Part shown: positions 17,381-60,117 of the stretch, piece after piece
Layout of the letters: each line of letters starts with the position of its first letter
Position numbering within the stretch: position 1 is the stretch's first letter
Origin: a virus
Taxonomy: Duplodnaviria; Caudoviricetes
IMG/VR virus record: IMGVR_UViG_3300037312_000804
Span: 206-64,205 of that record
Length of the DNA: 64,000 bases
Reading direction: 5' to 3' (one strand)
The notes under the pieces: model-generated
Seen by the model: the letters and a program-made list of their open reading frames with translations, nothing else
Told to the model about the DNA's origin: nothing
Databases searched by the model: none
Program-made: the position numbers and the translations under genes

Positions 17381-18328
17381 TTAAGCGCGGAGGTAGCGCG
17401 CGCGCTGGGCTTCGGACAGATTGGCGACAGCCGCTTCGTACGCTTCGACGTCGCCCGACTTCTGCAGGGCGTTCAGGGATGCGAACTCGCCGCCGCTGGT
17501 GTCGTTCATGTCGGCCGCCGGCAGGGTGCCGATGTTCAGCGGCGCGGCCGGCTTGGGCACCTTGTGCTGCGTGACCTTGGCGGGCGGCGCCTGCGTCGTT
17601 GCGGCCGGCGCGGGCGTCTCGCCCATTTCCAGCTGGACCATGCGGTGCGCCTTGGCCAGCGCCTTCTCGTTCGACAGGCCCTGATTGCTCGGCATGCTGG
17701 CCAATGCCATGATGGATTCGTTCAGGAGCTTGTAGCGTTCGCTGGCCTTGTCCGCATATTCCGGGTGCGAGTTGAGGAAGGCATTGCAGTCGGCAACCCA
17801 CTGGTTCTGGACGCGCTGCTCTTCCATCTTTTGGGCGAGCTCGGCTTCGCGCACCTGCGCCTTGAGGTCGAACTGCTTGTCGTTCAGGGCGTCCAGTTGG
17901 GTCTGGTATTCCTTGCCGGTGACTTCGCCCGTCTCCCACTTCTCGATCAACGCGGCCTTGTCGGCGGCGATCTTGTCGAGTTGTTCCTTGGCGTCGGCGG
18001 GCGCCTGGACGATCAGGATCGGTGCGGGTGCCGGCGCTGCTTGCGGTTGCGGTGCAGGTTCAGCAGCAGCGGCGGGCGCGGGTTCCGGCTCGGCGTCGGG
18101 AGCAGGGGCCGCGTCTGCATCTGCAGCGCCAGCAGCGGGCTCATCGCCAGCAGCAGGAGCGGGATCAGCGGCAGGCGCGGCAGCGTCAGCATCAGCGGCC
18201 TGGGTTTCTGGGTCAGCGTCCGGGTCGACAATTTTTTTCTCCTCTTCTGCGTCGCCTTTGTAGGCGAGGGCGGCTTCTTCTTCAGGGGTCAGGCCGTGGT
18301 CGTCGTTGACGATGTGCTCGTTGCTCAT
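17381..18328 (-). CDS. Capsid scaffolding protein
   Basis: Acidic, Ala/Pro linker, coiled coil; between portal and MCP. Confidence 0.8.
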   Translation of the reverse strand: MSNEHIVNDDHGLTPEEEAALAYKGDAEEEKKIVDPDADPETQAADADAAAPAADPAPAAGDEPAAGAADADAAPAPDAEPEPAPAAAAEPAPQPQAAPAPAPILIVQAPADAKEQLDKIAADKAALIEKWETGEVTGKEYQTQLDALNDKQFDLKAQVREAELAQKMEEQRVQNQWVADCNAFLNSHPEYADKASERYKLLNESIMALASMPSNQGLSNEKALAKAHRMVQLEMGETPAPAATTQAPPAKVTQHKVPKPAAPLNIGTLPAADMNDTSGGEFASLNALQKSGDVEAYEAAVANLSEAQRARYLRA

Positions 18329-18341
18329 GGGGTGCTTCTCC

Positions 18342-20615
18342 TTATTGTGGTTGTGCTGCGACTGGTGCCGGCCCGGCCGGCGGTTGATCTGGTGCGGGTT
18401 GCGGCGGCGGCAGGCCCTGCGCGGCGGCCGACGGCAGATTCAGCGGCACAGGCAGGCCACCTTGCCATCCGCCCTGCTGCAGCAGCCCGTCGCCCACGCG
18501 CGCGATCGTCGGCGCCTGGATCGCCTGCGTGGCGGCGCTCATGGCGCTGTTCGCCGCGGTCATGTTCAGGTTGAGCATGGTGGCGCGCGCGACGTCGACA
18601 TCGGCGTGCTTCTTGGCCGCGCTGGCTTCCTTGTCCGCGATGTTGGCCGCCTGCTCACGCATGGCAAGTTCGGCTTGAGCCTGAGCCATCTGCGCCTGCT
18701 GCGCCTTGGCCTGCTCGGCTGCCATGTCCTCGGGCGTAGGCTCCAGCGCATCAGGGTCTTTCTGGCCGTTGATCGAGCGGATGCGCTTGACGAGTTCTTC
18801 GCGGTTCTCGATGTCCAGCGTGTCGGCCCACAGGTCCAGGATCTGGACGGTGATCTCGGGCGGCAGGCGGGTCATGAGTTCGCCCAGTTGCTCGTTCGAC
18901 GCCTGGCGCATGGTGGCGCGCCAGTCGGCCTCGGAGACGATGAAGTCGGCCTTGCTGCGTGTGATGTCGTTCTCGGGCAGGCCGTCGTTCATGGTGACGA
19001 ACTCGGGCACGCCGCGCATGTTCGTGACGCGGAACTGCTTTTCTTCGGTGGCGAACTGTTCGACCAGCGACAGTTTCTTCTCGCCGTGGATCTGGTGCGC
19101 CAGGCGCAGGTTGTCGAACGGGCCGGACGTTGCGAGACTGCCTTGCTCCTGGCGCTTCTCGACGGCGACGCCCGACACGGCATTCGTCTTGCGGCCCATG
19201 AGCTCGTCGGTGACGCCGCCCACCTGCTGGATCATGCCGACGTCGTGCGCCAGCATCTGCATGTGCGCCTGATCCATGCCGCGCTCGGAATCGGTTTTGA
19301 TCCGTCCGAGCCCACCCTGCGCGAGCCGCACGATGCCATCCGGGCGATTCACCTCCGTCATGAACTCGTCCGGTTTCATGTCGGGCGACAGGGCGCCGTC
19401 CTCGATGTAGACCTTGTTGGTGTTCAGGATGTGCAGCGCCTTCGATGCGCGCTTGTTCACGCCGTCCTGGATCGGGCGCAGGTTGCGCACGAAGCCGTAG
19501 GGCGCGCCGTTGCGGCCGCGGCGGAAGCACCAGATCGGCGTCAGGCTGAAACCGTTGTGGCGGTAGATCGACGGGCCTTCGTGGATCAGGAAGGAGGGTG
19601 TCATGATGGCCACGCGCATGCGCATCATCGGTTTCGTGACGATGGACGCCATGCCCAGGTCGATCTGCTCCTGATGGCGCGGGTCGTTCTCGTCGAAGAT
19701 CTGGCCGTTGAACGGTCCGCCGCGCAGCTTCTTGACGTCCTCGGGGTTGCGGTATTCGGCCTGGATCAGGCGCACGCGGCGGCGCTTGAACTCGGACAGG
19801 CTGCGGCCGGTTGCCGTCTCGCGGTCGGCTTCGGCGCCATCCATGGCCGGATCGCCGTCCACGCCGTCGTAGCCGGTCAGCACCGTGGATTCCTGCACCG
19901 AACGGGAAATCTTGTCGGCCGCGCCAGGGATGTGTTTGAACATGGCGATGGCCACGTCCTCGTCCACCCAGCGGATGCGGAAGCGGTAGCGGTGGTCGTC
20001 GTCGGTGATCTTGCTGCCGGCCGAATCGTAGATGACATTGCGCCACGATTCGCTGCGCTCGTAGATCGGTTCGCCGTCGTCCTCGTCCTGCAGGCCACAC
20101 TCGAGCCAGCCGACGCCCACCTTGGCGGAATCCTCGAACGCGGACGAGCGGTGAAAGCCCGCATAGTTCACGTCCGACAGGTACTTCATGTATTTCGATT
20201 TGCGCTCGGCCGGCTTGGCGTCTTCCTTCCCGCGCGGCAGGATCTTGTCGTCGGTGCGTCCGCGCTTCTCGGAACCGAAGATCCAGTTCAGCGTGACGGC
20301 CAGCACGTTATACGTCGTGGCCGGCTGGCCGCGCTCGTGCAGGATGGCTAGGTCTTCTTCCGATAGCTGGATGCCATCGTAGTAGTCCTCATCCATCGCC
20401 TGCTCGAAGCGGTTGTCGGCCTGAATGTCGAGCTCGCGCCGGTAGAACGACATCAGCTTCGCATGCAACTGCTCCAGGCGTTCCTCTTCGGCGCGCTCGG
20501 CGGCGCCCTTCTCCGTCTCGGGGAACAGCGGGGCGTCTTTCGCCACGCCGCGGTCGGCAGGAGCCGCTTTGACCAGTTTGGTCCGCTTCGGGTCATTCAG
20601 GTCAATGGGCTCCAT
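18342..20615 (-). CDS. Portal protein
   Basis: 757 aa; DEDYYDGIQLS...TYNVLAVTLNWIFGSE...RNLRPIQDGVNKRASK...NAVSGVAV. Confidence 0.92.
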   Translation of the reverse strand: MEPIDLNDPKRTKLVKAAPADRGVAKDAPLFPETEKGAAERAEEERLEQLHAKLMSFYRRELDIQADNRFEQAMDEDYYDGIQLSEEDLAILHERGQPATTYNVLAVTLNWIFGSEKRGRTDDKILPRGKEDAKPAERKSKYMKYLSDVNYAGFHRSSAFEDSAKVGVGWLECGLQDEDDGEPIYERSESWRNVIYDSAGSKITDDDHRYRFRIRWVDEDVAIAMFKHIPGAADKISRSVQESTVLTGYDGVDGDPAMDGAEADRETATGRSLSEFKRRRVRLIQAEYRNPEDVKKLRGGPFNGQIFDENDPRHQEQIDLGMASIVTKPMMRMRVAIMTPSFLIHEGPSIYRHNGFSLTPIWCFRRGRNGAPYGFVRNLRPIQDGVNKRASKALHILNTNKVYIEDGALSPDMKPDEFMTEVNRPDGIVRLAQGGLGRIKTDSERGMDQAHMQMLAHDVGMIQQVGGVTDELMGRKTNAVSGVAVEKRQEQGSLATSGPFDNLRLAHQIHGEKKLSLVEQFATEEKQFRVTNMRGVPEFVTMNDGLPENDITRSKADFIVSEADWRATMRQASNEQLGELMTRLPPEITVQILDLWADTLDIENREELVKRIRSINGQKDPDALEPTPEDMAAEQAKAQQAQMAQAQAELAMREQAANIADKEASAAKKHADVDVARATMLNLNMTAANSAMSAATQAIQAPTIARVGDGLLQQGGWQGGLPVPLNLPSAAAQGLPPPQPAPDQPPAGPAPVAAQPQ

Positions 20616-54275: not shown

Positions 54276-57200
54276 TTATTTGCTTTGCATCATCTTCTGC
54301 ATGCGCTCGACTTCCTCGGGGGTGGCGTGTTCGAGGAACTTGCGCATGCGGCCCGCGGTGATGCGGTTCGGCGCCATGATGGTCAGGATCAGTCGGCCGG
54401 CTTCCTTCGGCGTCTGCCCGGCGTCGATCAGCAGTTTCTGTGCCTTATCCGTGTCGCCGCGCATCACGGCGTCCTTGACGTCGGGCATGACGTTGCTGAG
54501 TTTCGCCTGCTGCTCGCGCGCGGCGTAGCGCATCTCGGCCACGGCGTCGCCGCCGGTCAGCTTCGACACGGACAGGCCGGTGGCCGTGCCCATCAGTTTC
54601 GCTTCGTCCATGTCCAGGTCCATGCCCAGCATGCGCACCTTGCCGCCCTTGTGCTGGTTGTCGGTCGCCAAGTTCTTCAACGCCACGAAGTCGTCGAACG
54701 GCACCTGCGATTTCAGCACGTGGCCGATCACCTGCGCGCCCTGCACCAGCAGGTTCGCATCCTCGTCATACACCTGCTTGCCGTTGAATTCCTTGTTGGC
54801 CTTCGCCTCCGCGATCCCTTTCACCAGCGGGCTGGCTTTGGCGTCGATCAGGTCGGACGCGCTCTTCAGATTCAGGTAGGACTTCATCTCTTCGACGACC
54901 TTACCCACCGGCAGGCGCATGTAGTAGGTGTTGCCGTGCTCGTCCTCGCCCAGGCGGATGCGGTCCTGCTTGCCGTGCGGGTTGTCGTGGGTCTGCGACA
55001 GCATCTCCAGGTTTTCGAACGGGTGGCGCAGCAGCGCCAGCGGCAGCCCGGCCTTGCCCCACGTCGGCCCCATGAAGGCCAGCGGGTTTTCCTTGTCGAG
55101 TTTCACACCCAGCGCGTGCGCGCGCTCGAGCAGGTCGCGTTTGAAATCGTCGCCATCTTCGCCCTTGAGCCACGCCTGCATCAGCGTGGTGATGATCGCC
55201 ATGGCGCCGAAGTCGGCCATCAGGATCATGGCGGCCTTCTTCCGCGTCGCGGCCTGCGCCTGCTTCAGCACGTCGCCCGCGGCGTCCATCGCCTCGATGT
55301 CGGTCTTGCCCATGGCGCGGTTCAGCGCGGCGAAGTGCTCCATGATCTGCGCGCGCACGTCGCCCGGCAGGCCGACGATCGGATCTTTCATCGCGCCCAG
55401 GTTGGTCATCGTGAACGATTTCGAAAACAGCATGATGTTGCCGAACGCGTGCGCGGCCTGGCTCATGGCTTCCTGCGGCACGGCGCCGGCGTAGCGGTTG
55501 GCGAAGAACGTGGCAATACGCGTTGCCGTGTACTGGTCGATGCCCTCGTCCATGAAGTGGTTGCGCATCTGGACGGCCATGCCGACCTGCATATCGCCGA
55601 TGCGGTCCCACAGCAGGGTTTCGTGCCAGAAGTGACCCAAGTCGTCGACGTTCTCGCGCATGCCGTCGCCGGTCCCCATCTTCGCTACTACGCGTCCGGT
55701 CTTAGCAATGGTGTGGCCGGTTCGGTTGATGACGCGGCCCGCGATGTTGTCGCCCATCGCCTTGCCCGTGTTACCGATGGCGCGCCCGATTGGCACTGCA
55801 ACCGCATCGACCGCCTTGCCGGCGACGCGTGCCACCGGACCAGTTACAGGCTCTGTCACATCCAGCACGGCGCCGAGCGCCTTGGCCGCCAGCGAGCGCC
55901 CCGGTTTCAAGCCGTTGCCGATGGCCTCGATGTCCGGGTTCATGCCGCGCCCGCCGATCGGCACCAGCCCGCCTTTTACAAGGTCGTTGAACAGCGCGTG
56001 GTCCTTGCGCAACTGGTGGCCCATTACGTAGGTATAGGCGCCGAACGTGCCGATGTTTTTCAGGTTGTTGCGCCAGCCCATCGACGAGATGAGAGACGGC
56101 ATGGCCTTGCCCCAGATGACCGCGTTGTGGGTCATCGGGGAGATCATGATGAGGCTCATGGACATGCCCTTCATCGCCATGAAGGCGCGGTAGACCGCGT
56201 TGTGGTTGCCGGTGAAAACGGCCTTCAGCGGGCCGGCGAAATCCTTGTGCACGAACAGTGGCGCGCGGTCCATGATCGGGTTGCCGTCGGCATCGGTCAC
56301 GATCTCGGTCTTGCCGTCGACCTGCTTGGTGCGCGGGACAAAACGCTTCAGCGCCGGGTGGTCGAACGTCACGAAGTTCGGGCCACCGTCCTCCGACACG
56401 AGTTCCGCGCCGGTGGCCTGGCCGTGCGCCTTGATCTGGTTGACCAGCGTGCGCCCGGCGATCGCCTTTTCCAGTTGCGCCATCGCCATCGGCATCACGC
56501 GGATGTTTTTCACATACGATGCATCCTCGCCCAGTTTGGCCTTGAGCGCGGCTTCGGATTCCTCCGTCGTCTCGTGCATGCGGCGCTTCGTGCTGGATGC
56601 GCTGGTCTTGAGGTTCTTGGCTTCCTTGGAAAACTCGCCGGCCTGCGGGCGCAGCGCGTCCGTGCTGCCGTCGGCGTAGATGTTGGCGGCCACGCGAGGG
56701 GTCCAGTAGTGCACGCCCGCGGCGTCTTCGCTCACGAGCCCCGCCTGCTTGGCGCGCCGCCACAACTGCTCGCCGTACGCGTGCAGCACCTCCACGGTTT
56801 CGCGCTGGTCGGGCGGCAGGGAATTCAGCCCCTTCGTCTCCGACGTCTTGCCATCGCGGCGCAGATCGTTTTCCTGGTCGGCGGCCTCCCACATCTTGCG
56901 CAGTTGCGCGTCGTTGTAGTTGTTGCGCAGCACGGCGTCGAACGCGTTCCACTGCGCCGTGGCCACACGCATGTTGTTGGCGAAATCCTTGGCCAGCGCC
57001 TGCGCCTTCTGCGTGCCCACCGACATCGGGCTGACCAGCATGCCGATGTTGTGCGCGGCCGACCGCAACTGCGCCACCGGGCGGCCGATCAGCTTGGCCA
57101 GTTTCGTGCGCATGTTGTCCGGCACCTCGGGCGTTTCAGGCGTGTAGCTGGCACTTGGCTCGGCAACGATGGACGGGTTGGACGGATCGAATGCGCCGCT

Positions 57201-59780
57201 GTTGCCGGTGGCGCTCTTGATCTGCTCGGGGCTGAATACAGCGAGATTTTTAACGCCTTCCTCGTTCACATACAGCCCGTCGAAGCCGGACTTTTTGATT
57301 GCCGCTAGCAGGGTCCGGTCTTCCAGCCGCTGCCACGACCCTTTTTTGATTTGGTTGATTGCAGCGCTTCCAAGGCTCGCGCGGGCCGCGACCATGTTCA
57401 CATGCTTCTTGTTCTCATAGTCAAATGGATTGGATGCGGCTACGTATACCAGCATAATGTTCGCACCCTCGGCGGTCGCCCCACTTTCTTCAGTGAGGAA
57501 TTTTCCGACCCACTCAGGCGACGGACTGACGAAATGGACGCCGCGCGTATTCTCTCGGAACGCGCTGAAGTCTCCAGTGGTGGCGTGGTACATAACCTGC
57601 GGCCGGCCCTGCTCGTCGACGACCTTGCTGTCTCCAAACCAGCGATAAAACGCCAACTGCTTGTTCATGTCCTCGGCGACCGGGACGCCCTTGCTGTTCT
57701 CGATCGGGCGGCGCACGCCGTCCACCTGGACCGTGTGGATGCGGCGCTCGGGCGTGCCGCGATCCTCGGCGCGGCGGTCGCCTGATTCTTCGACCGGTTC
57801 GGCAACGCGCTGCGATTTCGCCTTGCCCTTGTTGATGAAGTCGCCGGGATGATAGAAACCCTTTCCCTGCAGGCTGTCGCCATCGGCGCTTACCACGTCG
57901 GTAACGACGCCGTGCCCCAGCAGTTTGAGGAACACTGGCGCCTGGATGTTGGCGCCGGACGGCAGGACGATGAAGCGGTTGCCGCCCGCGCCGGCCGTGC
58001 GCGTCATGCGTCGCACCAGCGCTTTTGCGCGCACCATGTCGTCGCCGCTTTTCAGGTTCGCCAGCGCGTCCAGCGGCACGTCAACCAGCAACTGCGTGTC
58101 GCCGCGTGCGGTCGTCAGGATCAGCGTCGCGTGCCCGTTCGGCACCTGCAGCGCCTTGGCCGCGCGCGCCACCGCATCAGGGCTCGTCAGGCGCACTCCC
58201 AGCATCTTGTGCTGCATCTCGGGCATGCCGGTAAAGTCGGTGCCGTTCAGGTGCGGCGCCTGAATTGTTTCTTCGCCCCAGTTGTGGATGACCGAATATT
58301 CGTTGTGGTCGATGACCACGTGGCCCAGGAACCCCGGCAGGTGCTTGTCGACGAAGCGCGTCATCTGGATATCGGCCTGCGACGGCTCGGAATGCCCGCT
58401 CGGGTGGTTGTGCAGCAGGTAGTAGCCATCGGCGCCGAAGCGCTGCTTGTCGTCGTGGATCTGCTGCAGGAGGTCGTTCGGCATGGTGACGGAGGCGGGC
58501 AGGCGCGACGTATAGCCGGCCTCGCCGACGATCGTGCCGTCGCTGTCCGTGTAGAACACGCGGAAGGTTTCGAAGCGCGGGTCGCGGTACACCTGCGCGA
58601 GCACGGCCAGGTCGGCCGGCGTCTTGGCCTGCTGGCCTACGAGTTGGTTGGGTTTTCCGGCGAGGAAGTTGGCGAGCAATCGCGAGCCGAGTACGGAGAC
58701 GTTGCCTCCATCATCACGATTGCGTCGGTTGATACGATCAATGCCGAGCCGTCGGGCCAGGTCCGAGATGGCGGCGCGGGCAGTTTGCTTTTGCGCTTCG
58801 AGCGTGCCGGGCCGGACGGCGATGTCGTCGAACAGATCCTGGCCACCGAACAAGTCTCGAGTGTACGGGTCATCTTTGCGTTCCGTTACGGCGTCGTCGG
58901 CGCCTTCTTCCGCGTTGCCAGTTTCGTCAGCACGGCCCGGCGCAGCTTCGGCGGCACCTTCTTGAGTTTCGCCAGCGCCTGCTTGAGCGGTACGGCTTTG
59001 GGGTCCGAAGATTGCATCAAGTTCCTCATCGGTATCAAGGTTGGAAGGCACGCCCGCGTCCAGGTCGATGTCGGCGTCGCGCGCCGCCTCGACCAGCGCG
59101 TGCGCCTCGTCATCGGTAAAGCCTGCGGCGTGCGCGGCCACCACTTCATCATATACCTGATCTGCGGATTTTCCAGTCGTGTCGATGCCGAGTTTTTCGG
59201 CTTCGGCAAACAGTTCCTCGTCGCGGTCCGGCGCGACTGGCTCGGCCTGCGCCGCCGGCTGGATCACTTCTTTCCGGTGCACGGCGCGTTCGATCATGTC
59301 GGCCAGCTTGCGGGTGCCGCCGTTGTCGGTCGCATCCTGCATGTCGTCGCTGGACAGGAACCCGGCTTCATGCGCGCGCTGCGCCAGTTCGTCCATGCGC
59401 GCGCCGCGCTTGCGGTACAGGGCGCCGTAGCCAGGAATCATCGCGGGCCGCGTCGCTTCGCCGCCCGTGTCGCTTCGCTCGTCCGTGTGCACGCCGTGCT
59501 GGCCGAGGAAAGACAGGAACGGGTTTTCGCTCTGCACGCGCGCGCGCATGCGCTCGCCCGCCGACTTGCCGCCGCGCTTGTCGTAGGCGTCGGCCACGGT
59601 CTGCAGGATGTTCTGTTCTTCGGCGCGCGCGTTCTCCAGGTGCTCGGACACGACGCGTTCCAGCGCCTCGGCCATGGTCATGCCGTCGTTCTCGACGTAG
59701 TGGCTGGCTTCCTCGCGCATGTCCTGCACGGGCAACTTGTCGCTGAGTCCGTGCAGGGATAGGCAGTGTTCAAAGGACAT
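54276..59780 (-). CDS. Large polyvalent virion protein (1834 aa) with JAB/RadC-like and ART-like domains
   Basis: LLHNHPSGHSEPSQAD..T..LGHVVID (JAB); F.RWFGDSKVVDEQGRP.VMYHAT..F..F...HFVS...ANIM.VY...NPFD (ART-PolyVal-like). Confidence 0.85.
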   Translation of the reverse strand: MSFEHCLSLHGLSDKLPVQDMREEASHYVENDGMTMAEALERVVSEHLENARAEEQNILQTVADAYDKRGGKSAGERMRARVQSENPFLSFLGQHGVHTDERSDTGGEATRPAMIPGYGALYRKRGARMDELAQRAHEAGFLSSDDMQDATDNGGTRKLADMIERAVHRKEVIQPAAQAEPVAPDRDEELFAEAEKLGIDTTGKSADQVYDEVVAAHAAGFTDDEAHALVEAARDADIDLDAGVPSNLDTDEELDAIFGPQSRTAQAGAGETQEGAAEAAPGRADETGNAEEGADDAVTERKDDPYTRDLFGGQDLFDDIAVRPGTLEAQKQTARAAISDLARRLGIDRINRRNRDDGGNVSVLGSRLLANFLAGKPNQLVGQQAKTPADLAVLAQVYRDPRFETFRVFYTDSDGTIVGEAGYTSRLPASVTMPNDLLQQIHDDKQRFGADGYYLLHNHPSGHSEPSQADIQMTRFVDKHLPGFLGHVVIDHNEYSVIHNWGEETIQAPHLNGTDFTGMPEMQHKMLGVRLTSPDAVARAAKALQVPNGHATLILTTARGDTQLLVDVPLDALANLKSGDDMVRAKALVRRMTRTAGAGGNRFIVLPSGANIQAPVFLKLLGHGVVTDVVSADGDSLQGKGFYHPGDFINKGKAKSQRVAEPVEESGDRRAEDRGTPERRIHTVQVDGVRRPIENSKGVPVAEDMNKQLAFYRWFGDSKVVDEQGRPQVMYHATTGDFSAFRENTRGVHFVSPSPEWVGKFLTEESGATAEGANIMLVYVAASNPFDYENKKHVNMVAARASLGSAAINQIKKGSWQRLEDRTLLAAIKKSGFDGLYVNEEGVKNLAVFSPEQIKSATGNSGAFDPSNPSIVAEPSASYTPETPEVPDNMRTKLAKLIGRPVAQLRSAAHNIGMLVSPMSVGTQKAQALAKDFANNMRVATAQWNAFDAVLRNNYNDAQLRKMWEAADQENDLRRDGKTSETKGLNSLPPDQRETVEVLHAYGEQLWRRAKQAGLVSEDAAGVHYWTPRVAANIYADGSTDALRPQAGEFSKEAKNLKTSASSTKRRMHETTEESEAALKAKLGEDASYVKNIRVMPMAMAQLEKAIAGRTLVNQIKAHGQATGAELVSEDGGPNFVTFDHPALKRFVPRTKQVDGKTEIVTDADGNPIMDRAPLFVHKDFAGPLKAVFTGNHNAVYRAFMAMKGMSMSLIMISPMTHNAVIWGKAMPSLISSMGWRNNLKNIGTFGAYTYVMGHQLRKDHALFNDLVKGGLVPIGGRGMNPDIEAIGNGLKPGRSLAAKALGAVLDVTEPVTGPVARVAGKAVDAVAVPIGRAIGNTGKAMGDNIAGRVINRTGHTIAKTGRVVAKMGTGDGMRENVDDLGHFWHETLLWDRIGDMQVGMAVQMRNHFMDEGIDQYTATRIATFFANRYAGAVPQEAMSQAAHAFGNIMLFSKSFTMTNLGAMKDPIVGLPGDVRAQIMEHFAALNRAMGKTDIEAMDAAGDVLKQAQAATRKKAAMILMADFGAMAIITTLMQAWLKGEDGDDFKRDLLERAHALGVKLDKENPLAFMGPTWGKAGLPLALLRHPFENLEMLSQTHDNPHGKQDRIRLGEDEHGNTYYMRLPVGKVVEEMKSYLNLKSASDLIDAKASPLVKGIAEAKANKEFNGKQVYDEDANLLVQGAQVIGHVLKSQVPFDDFVALKNLATDNQHKGGKVRMLGMDLDMDEAKLMGTATGLSVSKLTGGDAVAEMRYAAREQQAKLSNVMPDVKDAVMRGDTDKAQKLLIDAGQTPKEAGRLILTIMAPNRITAGRMRKFLEHATPEEVERMQKMMQSK
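58886..59017 (-). CDS. Putative nested +1-frame basic 43-aa peptide (MQSSDPKAVPLKQALAKLKKVPPKLRRAVLTKLATRKKAPTTP)
   Basis: GAGGA 5 nt before ATG; 36 of 43 codons end in G/C while the main frame is often A/T-ending here. Confidence 0.5.
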   Translation of the reverse strand: MQSSDPKAVPLKQALAKLKKVPPKLRRAVLTKLATRKKAPTTP

Positions 59781-60117
59781 GGCGGGCAAACTCCATAATC
59801 AGGTTCAAGATGATCTGTTCTTCTTCGTCGTTCTCGGCGTGCACGCGAATTCGGTATTGCTTCGGCGCATCTTCGTCATGGTAACGCGACAGCGCGCCGC
59901 CGCCACCATAAATCTGCGTTGGCGCGGGCGGCTCGCGCGTGTCGAATTCGGCCCATCCGACGGTGACGTCGGTGATGACGCCGAAGGTGTCGAACTCGGC
60001 GAACCCGACCGTGACGTCAACGACGATGCCGCGCGCGTCGAACTCGGCGAAGCCGACCTGCACATCGACCGGAGGGTGCGCGGCATCCAGCACAGCCCAT
60101 TCGACGGTGACGGCCAT
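59770..60117 (-). CDS. Small protein with 16-aa tandem repeats
   Basis: (V/T)DV(Q/T)VG(F/W)AEFD repeats; C-terminal EEEQIILNLI. Confidence 0.7.
   Translation of the reverse strand: MAVTVEWAVLDAAHPPVDVQVGFAEFDARGIVVDVTVGFAEFDTFGVITDVTVGWAEFDTREPPAPTQIYGGGGALSRYHDEDAPKQYRIRVHAENDEEEQIILNLIMEFARHVL
59930..60115. repeat. Imperfect 48-bp tandem repeat, 3-4 units
   Basis: gtcgaa(t/c)tcggc at 59941, 59989 and 60037; degenerate fourth unit. Confidence 0.75.

Follow-up and report, generated by a model that had tools for sequence, protein, structure and literature searches.

To our knowledge, well-supported nested genes are few in tailed phages, and Rz1 of phage lambda is the textbook case. In the embedded spanin genes Rz and Rz1, the smaller gene is fully contained in the other; it is read from the same strand in the +1 frame and has a start of its own, and both products are made (PMC6139136, PMC5295617). 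Here we analyse a 64,000-nucleotide stretch of DNA from a tailed phage (positions 206 to 64,205 of the IMG/VR record IMGVR_UViG_3300037312_000804; hereafter 'the window'), in which an open reading frame (ORF) of 43 codons lies in the +1 frame of a gene encoding a giant polyvalent protein. Judging from the homologues compared below, this ORF is most likely a real, conserved and unannotated small gene, nested on the same strand within the polyvalent gene, 41-63 codons long across homologues, independently initiated and encoding a basic product with two predicted helices. The kind of gene is not new: it is another case of a known class, the same-strand overlapping genes of phages.

The nested peptide gene resembles Rz1 in being fully contained in its host gene, in sharing its strand, in the use of the +1 frame and in having its own start. 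However, Rz1, a lipoprotein of the outer membrane, has a signal peptide and a lipobox Cys, belongs to a lysis cassette and binds Rz, whereas the nested peptide has no Cys and neither a signal sequence nor a hydrophobic N-terminus, its host is a RadC/ART polyvalent gene, and the host frame encodes a disordered linker rather than a functional domain. With no Cys, no hydrophobic N-terminus and a host gene that is not an i-spanin, an Rz1-type o-spanin is ruled out. Another small nested gene encodes ComS, a protein of about 46 amino acids that binds MecA. This gene lies inside srfAB of Bacillus subtilis and is likewise a small gene in a distinct frame of a giant multi-modular gene with which it is co-transcribed, but its sequence, its host (a cellular nonribosomal peptide synthetase operon) and its function in competence are unrelated to those of the nested peptide (PMC12915044). 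Viral overprinted genes pair an ordered, conserved frame with a disordered one of odd composition, and codon usage differs between the two (PMC8227390). At our locus, it is the small nested frame that has genome-typical codons and a free-standing relative, so the giant gene's linker, and not the small gene, looks newer.

The features on which the analysis depends are the following, where 'host' refers to the polyvalent gene and its reading frame.

58886..59017, minus strand: nested small gene, with ATG at 59017, 43 sense codons and TAA at 58888-58886, in the +1 frame of the polyvalent gene
59023..59027, minus strand: Shine-Dalgarno-like GAGGA, 5 nt (ACTTG) before the nested ATG, within host codons Asp-Glu-Glu
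58922..58969, minus strand: most conserved peptide core in alignments, residues 17-32, KLK-x-V/I/L-P-x-x-L/M-R-x-x-V-L-x-K/E; predicted end of helix 1, Pro turn and helix 2
58890..59003, minus strand: host-frame acidic low-complexity linker of ~38 codons, overlapping the nested gene; weakly conserved, with a G+C content at third codon positions (GC3) of ~0.4-0.5
59004..59567, minus strand: N-module, host residues 75-262, predicted to be all-helical, ending D-A-D-I-x-L-D ... D-E-E-L-D-A-I-F-G
58305..58598, minus strand: RadC-like JAB domain, host residues 398-495 (Pfam PF04002, 33 bits, above cut-off)
54276..59789, minus strand: host polyvalent gene, 1837 codons from a TTG at 59789

The nested ATG is at offset 772 from the start of the host ORF, that is, in the +1 frame. 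A first-pass annotation of the window, made from its letters alone, had reported GAGGA five nucleotides ahead of an ATG at 59017, followed by 43 codons, 36 of them ending in G or C, and a TAA at 58888, and every one of these details is exact. We infer that the GAGGA could act as a ribosome-binding site. The peptide has 43 amino acids, a mass of 4.7 kDa and an isoelectric point (pI) of 11.8, with 12 Lys and Arg residues and a single Asp or Glu. The same annotation had described the main frame as an acidic linker with A/T-ending codons, upstream of a JAB domain, and this description also holds. The linker is rich in Ala, Gly, Glu and Thr, has a pI of 4.1 and uses G/C-ending codons in only 21 of 44 cases, and it is the lowest-GC3 43-codon window of the whole host gene (0.40-0.48, versus 0.85 gene-wide), in a window with a G+C content of ~63%. 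The RadC/JAB domain follows ~100 codons downstream.

We found the nested ORF in 15 of 15 distinct sequences, which is every homologue with DNA in hand, at identities in the N-module down to 45%, although these sequences fall into few clades and are not independent. A first set of seven homologues, obtained by protein search, spans the whole region at 64-93% identity. In all seven, the ATG is at the same nucleotide within host (L/I)-D-(A/E), with Asp always encoded by GAT. The +1 stop is also at the same place in all seven, where a host Val, always GTA and then A or G, stands before host E-R-K-D-D-P-Y. Since the Shine-Dalgarno-like site and the start fall within conserved host residues, which detracts from their constancy as an argument for a gene, only synonymous choices count as evidence. 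These choices are fixed on rare codons. GAT, which makes up 24-50% of Asp codons in these genes, is fixed at the nested start, and GTA, which makes up 8-16% of Val codons, is fixed at the nested stop in those eight homologues that are JAB-linked. Within the Shine-Dalgarno motif, the first Glu codon is GAG in 13 of the 15 homologues, though GAA accounts for 50-60% of Glu codons there; the motif is not used by the other two, L173 and L174. The peptides of the first homologues share the motif Q-x-(V/L/M)-A-x-K-L-K-x-(I/V)-P-x-x-(L/M)-R-x-x-V-L-x-(K/E)-L-A-x-R-x-K, and the motif common to all 15 is K-L-K-x-(I/V/L)-P-x-x-(L/M)-R-x-x-V-L-x-(K/E)-L-x-x-R; the host linker differs freely in sequence over the same stretch. 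Just beyond the core, Leu33 and Arg36 are conserved; M1, R26 and R36 are invariant and L33 is nearly so. Four codons past the nested stop there is a second +1-frame ATG, again formed by GAT-G (host K-D-D), which begins a 78-codon ORF (58637-58873, minus strand). This ATG is found in all eight JAB-linked homologues, but it carries little weight as the host protein is highly conserved there.

Further homologues came from a degenerate DNA pattern for host D-E-x-x-D-x-I-F-G that was neutral between GAT and GAC. This search gave three new viral contigs (L023, L029 and L049) and re-found L003 (as L044), all with GAT and the ORF. The module after the linker differs in these four contigs, so the small ORF travels with the upstream N-module and not with the JAB domain; its start is always within, or right at, the final N-module codons. 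As a prospective test, we took the three most divergent of the homologues found by searching with the N-module alone (see below), which are 45-52% identical in that module and have a GC3 of ~0.6, two of which were picked because their protein sequence (D-K or N-R for D-A) precludes the canonical ATG. All three (L173, L174 and L175) have the ORF and the motif. L175 has the canonical GAGGA-ATG arrangement. In L173, the ATG is 4 codons further upstream, with a TAA two codons before it and only a weak GAAACA upstream, and in L174 a GTG start directly follows a TAA, with GGAGG 6 nt upstream. As judged from these sequences, turnover of the start while the ORF is kept is the behaviour of a real gene. 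On the late polyvalent mRNA, translation would most likely start independently, at the gene's own Shine-Dalgarno-like site and ATG, or at a GTG in one relative. One sigma-70-like site precedes the nested ORF, at 59175-59148, as no more than a match to the consensus.

The region just ahead of the start also bears on a different explanation, in which ribosomes on the N-module shift +1 and stop at the nested stop, producing a short N-module isoform with a basic C-terminal tail. Frameshift isoforms are known, for example from dnaX and the tail-chaperone G/GT proteins. In the window and L010, the CCC-C within GGA-CCC-CAA could let tRNA-Pro re-pair +1; a naturally occurring allele with a 1-nt deletion, described below, makes exactly the fusion of N-module and peptide; and the phage has a tRNA-like gene with a four-base anticodon. 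However, the CCC-C site is confined to the window's clade and missing from most homologues. Moreover, +1-frame stops precede the start, directly or nearly so in L003 (TAG), L173 and L174 and at a distance of 7 codons in L012 and L015, which excludes entry by upstream frameshifting in these sequences, and a start codon and Shine-Dalgarno-like site are kept or replaced in every member. We consider it very unlikely that frameshifting is the explanation. The tRNA-like gene (3246-3319, minus strand; anticodon gcct, found with ARAGORN) is unconnected with the nested ORFs, and we rejected it as a way into the +1 frame, because it would read AGGC and the polyvalent gene is without any in-frame AGG. 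AGG is rare in the window, at 54 of ~16,000 in-frame codons, and many of the AGG-C cases are in doubtful small ORFs from crude gene calls.

Selection appears to act on the peptide, with the host linker as a passenger frame. Over the 22-codon ungapped core in 15 sequences, the +1 frame has a mean pairwise identity of 0.49 and the host frame one of 0.31; the +1 value is the greater in 102 of 105 pairs, and the BLOSUM62 score per site is 2.29 versus 1.02. Pairwise differences in the core at nested positions 1, 2 and 3 number 185, 131 and 247 in one comparison and 1005, 712 and 991 in that of the 15 sequences, so that the minimum falls both times on nested position 2, equivalent to host position 3. 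Along ~270 aligned host codons examined in 12-codon windows, host position 3 is the most variable everywhere except for an isolated near-tie a little upstream (codons 247-258) and a run at ~58985-58900, where it is the least variable (0.22-0.27, versus 0.35-0.47 at host position 1). Among 232 ungapped 22-codon windows, the nested core is the sole one in which the +1 frame is clearly better conserved (0.61 versus 0.39). By the Nei-Gojobori method, the ratio of nonsynonymous to synonymous differences (pN/pS) comes to 1.43 in the host frame and 0.69 in the nested one; an overlap-aware ratio over within-clade pairs is 0.87 and 0.61, respectively. In close strains from four soil-metagenome runs, 5 of the 8 variants inside the ORF among those listed fall on nested position 3 (placed by hand), and downstream of the nested stop the listed variants are mostly on host position 3.

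Conservation of this kind could in principle belong to an RNA structure or a DNA site rather than to a protein. Such elements do occur in this gene, as an invariant 39-nt element lies ~130 nt downstream, and RNAalifold draws a small hairpin across the Shine-Dalgarno motif and the ATG. On the other hand, at -10.9 kcal/mol for 165 nt the consensus structure is a weak one, its covariation term is positive and therefore unfavourable, and the conservation is 3-periodic in the +1 phase with conservative replacements (L/M, V/I/L, K/R), which neither an RNA nor a DNA element predicts. We consider a nucleotide-level element very improbable. The 39-nt element itself (58725-58763, minus strand; host codons 343-355, D-L-A-R-R-L-G-I-D-R-I-N-R) is identical in 7 of the 8 homologues and differs at 4 positions in P0008/L015, in a gene where synonymous sites elsewhere differ at 0.3-0.5 per site. 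It contains the rare codons CGA, CGG, ATT, GAT and CGT and an inverted repeat, TTGAT-CGT-ATCAA, flanked by TCGG/CCGA, and is a candidate for a protein-binding palindrome or an RNA hairpin inside coding sequence.

Several lines of evidence suggest that the small gene is probably the older of the two readings. In the eight JAB-linked homologues, the G+C content at third positions is 0.72-0.81 in the nested frame and 0.47-0.53 in the host frame, so that the nested frame has genome-typical codon usage and the host frame does not. L018, a groundwater contig of 561 bp, has two stops in the host frame and yet an intact small ORF of 49 amino acids, which begins 5 nt past the stop upstream of it. There is also a free-standing relative, P0124 (see below). 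The linker, whose length varies among homologues always in multiples of 3, might have arisen when the ORF of the upstream module came to read across the small gene into the next module.

Some observations weigh against a nested gene, in addition to the few clades and the conserved host residues mentioned above, and several of them also speak for chance, that is, for an acidic linker rich in Gly, Ala and Glu in a GC-rich phage that yields an open +1 frame rich in Lys, Arg, Ala, Leu and Pro, with an ATG that is an accident of Asp-Ala (GAT-G). Stop-free stretches account for 25% of the 43-codon +1 windows in the GC-rich host gene, which also has 7 +1 ORFs that begin with ATG and run for 43 codons or more. 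The basic composition and G/C-ending codons of the peptide are a by-product of the acidic host frame with its GAA, GCN and GGN codons: G/C-ending nested codons are automatic because the third base of a nested codon is the first base of a host codon, and codons for Ala, Gly, Glu and Asp all begin with G, and the richness in Lys is automatic because host GAA-G reads AAG (Lys) one base on. In addition, the window has a low-GC3 acidic linker rich in Ala, Pro, Asp and Glu, at 18017-18292, that is without an obvious nested ORF led by a Shine-Dalgarno motif and ATG. The estimates of selection are no more than moderate, at 0.61-0.69. When all 15 sequences are taken together, the overlap-aware ratio is ~1.0 (95% confidence interval 0.75-1.33). 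Finally, the peptide has no match in Pfam, PHROG, the ESM Atlas or Foldseek/PDB.

The ratio of ~1.0 over all pairs is probably due to saturation of synonymous sites (p ~0.43). A peptide of 43 residues, about a dozen of them constrained, would be expected to show moderate selection, and, as read from the alignments, this selection clearly belongs to the +1 frame. Chance leaves unexplained why the +1 peptide outconserves the host protein and why host position 3 is least variable only here. It also fails to account for the fixed GAT, GTA and GAG codons, for starts that are replaced rather than lost, and for an ORF that survives a broken host frame in L018. The product of the gene-specific probabilities of a stop-free window over ten genes is 3e-8 with the genes treated as independent, so their relatedness means that this value overstates the significance. 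By this sequence comparison, the evidence from one sequence is unremarkable and the excess over chance lies in conservation across homologues. The comparative data thus appear to refute chance largely, and we regard it as highly improbable.

The low GC3 of the linker was followed up in a window-wide scan of 13,252 windows of 35 codons, based on crude gene calls. Regions inside genes where host GC3 is below the G+C content at first positions comprise the three nested-ORF sites (the present one and two that are discussed below), the linker at 18017-18292 and two minor sites; the other matches are mis-extended 5′ ends of the crude gene calls. Low GC3 therefore marks linkers in this phage and is by itself no proof of a second gene. 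At 18017-18292 (minus strand, within gene 17384-18439), host GC3 is 0.40 and the +1 frame is open for ~90 codons, very hydrophobic and rich in Leu and Pro after internal Met codons. This could be either another hidden ORF or a sign that acidic linkers here simply take A/T-ending codons.

With regard to the product, AlphaFold2 with a 12-sequence alignment predicts helices at residues 11-20 and 23-38 with a turn at the conserved Pro, with a predicted local distance difference test (pLDDT) score of 72 overall and 79-84 in the core. The product would thus be a small basic protein of two helices joined at the conserved proline. Both predicted helices are amphipathic, and net charge ranges from +3 to +11 and pI from 9.8 to 12 across members. 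The first-pass annotation had likened the peptide to membrane-active or DNA-binding peptides. These properties could suggest a cationic, membrane-active peptide that, for example, disrupts the outer membrane at lysis or genome entry, and phage phiKT gp28 provides a precedent for cationic lysis peptides of phages (bioRxiv 10.1101/515445). However, the gene is located in a gene for a virion or injected protein and not in a lysis cassette, the charge is poorly conserved while specific Pro, Arg, Leu and Val positions are conserved, the peptide, having neither Cys nor lipobox, is not an Rz1-type spanin, and the free-standing relative P0124 is a soluble-looking protein of three repeats. A membrane-active role is improbable in our estimation. 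The conserved hydrophobic, Arg and Pro positions of the predicted hairpin fit a folded protein- or nucleic-acid-binding unit better than a generic membrane-lytic peptide.

Relatives of the peptide offer some guidance as to what such a unit might bind. A profile search of 1.84 billion representative proteins gave six matches. Two of these, the 49-amino-acid ORF of L018 and the product P0125 of the deletion allele, are the only called copies of the gene among these proteins, and both are accidents, of a broken host frame and of a frameshift. Three others (P0122, P0123 and P0127) are multi-repeat alpha-alpha proteins with E-values of 2e-11 to 9e-4, which are inflated by the 4-8 repeats in each, the nested peptide being a single unit. 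Their sequences suggest HEAT-like or DUF4116-like proteins. Alpha-alpha repeat proteins are usually protein-binding. P0124 is a free-standing protein of 149 amino acids with three tandem copies of the hairpin unit (E 1.3e-10), and hhalign compares it to the peptide profile with a probability of 95.6% and 53% identity over 30 residues. It is encoded at L019:4001-4450 (also in L020 and L021), between a Type ISP restriction-modification gene and a region with a resolvase and an AAA_15/AAA_21 ATPase. P0124 shares the hairpin motif with the nested peptides, and every repeat starts M-S-x-S-D. Unlike them, it is tripled, less basic and encoded by an ordinary gene in its own frame, in a cellular or mobile-element context that resembles a defence island. 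The hairpin therefore exists as an ordinary protein elsewhere. TnpV (PF14198) had no match at E <= 1 to any of 12 members.

A role in nucleic-acid binding, in which the small basic protein condenses or escorts phage DNA or acts with DNA-directed polyvalent modules, would fit the high pI of all members and the helix-turn-helix-like shape of the predicted hairpin, and polyvalent proteins carry many nucleic-acid-binding modules (PMC5512222). However, the peptide matches no DNA-binding family, and the nearest profile matches are the alpha-alpha repeat proteins, of a usually protein-binding type. We see such a role as unlikely, though it is the chief alternative to docking on a protein partner.

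A lone amphipathic hairpin needs a packing surface, and the all-helical N-module always precedes the peptide, which makes the N-module a candidate partner. The hairpin might dock on a helical or acidic partner, the best candidate being this adjacent module, and the peptide would then be a cis-encoded accessory subunit or chaperone. In this respect, the deletion allele is of interest:

59011, minus strand: natural 1-nt deletion allele, seen in L022 (330-520, product P0125) and in a contig of run X4

In this allele, which in its two occurrences may stem from one sampling campaign, the N-module is fused in frame to the nested peptide and ends at the nested stop, and the giant gene is split, its downstream part being called from a later start. 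The fusion hints, in the manner of a Rosetta stone, that N-module and peptide work together, and would not be their normal mode of expression. Complex prediction for the peptide and the N-module gave a score of 0.40, compared with 0.01 for the best control, with runs agreeing in at least 87% of contacts and a partner pLDDT of at least 61. Of 80 solved complexes, 58 pass the mark applied to such predictions, as do 2 of 110 mismatched pairs, counts that hold roughly in our case because of custom alignments, and scores of 0.60 or lower occur in only 7 of those 80 solved complexes and in both mismatches that passed. The model therefore lends weak support to docking of the peptide on the N-module. 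We put docking on the N-module forward tentatively, as the likeliest mode of action but one that is more doubtful than not. AlphaFold2 predicts the N-module itself to be helical (pLDDT 67), Pfam and fold searches gave neither a family nor a fold match for it, and a protein search with residues 75-262 alone found 24 proteins that have it.

The first-pass annotation had further argued that finding the same arrangement in another giant gene of the window indicates a recurring design rather than chance. This gene encodes a protein with domains from SLT to ParB-like, and two nested ORFs had been flagged in it. ORF #1 (533-757, minus strand) has 75 codons and encodes an acidic, helical product, and host GC3 drops to 0.17 over it. 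It is kept in the +1 frame of L015 (2936-3142), where it shares the M-E-S-I start, follows two codons behind a stop and is 42% identical over 71 residues (local tblastn), and the host frame there encodes a low-complexity linker of Gly, Asp, Ala and Arg. A related-locus search with ORF #1 found no viral relative. ORF #2 (1-124, minus strand; ATG at 124) encodes a basic product and is open in the +1 frame of L015, where it has 21 identical leading residues and ends after 45 codons, but the host frame is conserved too and this one homologue cannot separate the frames. Thus, the part of the claim that stands is that the present ORF appears to be selected, from its conservation in homologues, and that the two other nested ORFs are kept in L015; the bias in codon endings and the basic composition are not independent evidence. 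L015 encodes one giant protein (P0008, 2976 amino acids), whose N-terminus matches the window's SLT-bearing giant protein (3-3140) and whose later part matches the 54276-59789 protein. On this sequence comparison, the window's two giant genes are fused or split forms of one module train.

These observations could be extended to a more general proposal, namely that polyvalent linkers are made by reading through resident small genes, which represent the older frame and each of which is still a separate cis-encoded partner of the preceding module. There would then be at least three hidden genes in this phage's two injected giant proteins, and the hairpin would bind the N-module or the acidic tail and control folding, packaging or release. 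We offer this proposal as speculation that is more likely wrong than right by some distance. If it were true, part of the arsenal of polyvalent loci would be invisible to annotation.

Gene finders forbid long same-strand overlaps, so genes of this sort are systematically missed. Searches of phage and plasmid records by blastn gave no match. No relative was found in genome contigs by protein, and none among the listed matches to a DNA pattern, at 120 or more loci, fits the hidden Markov model of the peptide, so the family is seen only in viral and metagenomic contigs. A metagenome scan gave a single locus on the same contig as L003, and a DNA pattern for the peptide core returned only viral contigs already known. 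Comparative support for the nested gene is unusually clean. A mutation that leaves the host protein unchanged can abolish the nested start, which provides a simple genetic handle. It also suggests how polyvalent proteins may acquire linkers, by passenger reading of an older small gene, and that polyvalent loci carry extra small proteins; with two more nested ORFs in the giant gene next to it, the pattern looks like a recurring one. Our literature search found no paper describing nested genes in polyvalent protein genes. Polyvalent proteins have been proposed to act in anti-defence or host takeover (PMC5512222).

The host gene is a polyvalent protein gene, its product being large and multidomain and combining RadC/JAB with ART-PolyVal (Iyer et al. 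2017, PMC5512222). The ART-PolyVal domain is at host residues 725-867 (Pfam PF18760, 76 bits, above cut-off), and homologues of the host protein have further domains, including LPD38, LPD39, SLT and others. The true host start is likely an ATG at 59780, since homologues start M-S-F-E-H-C.

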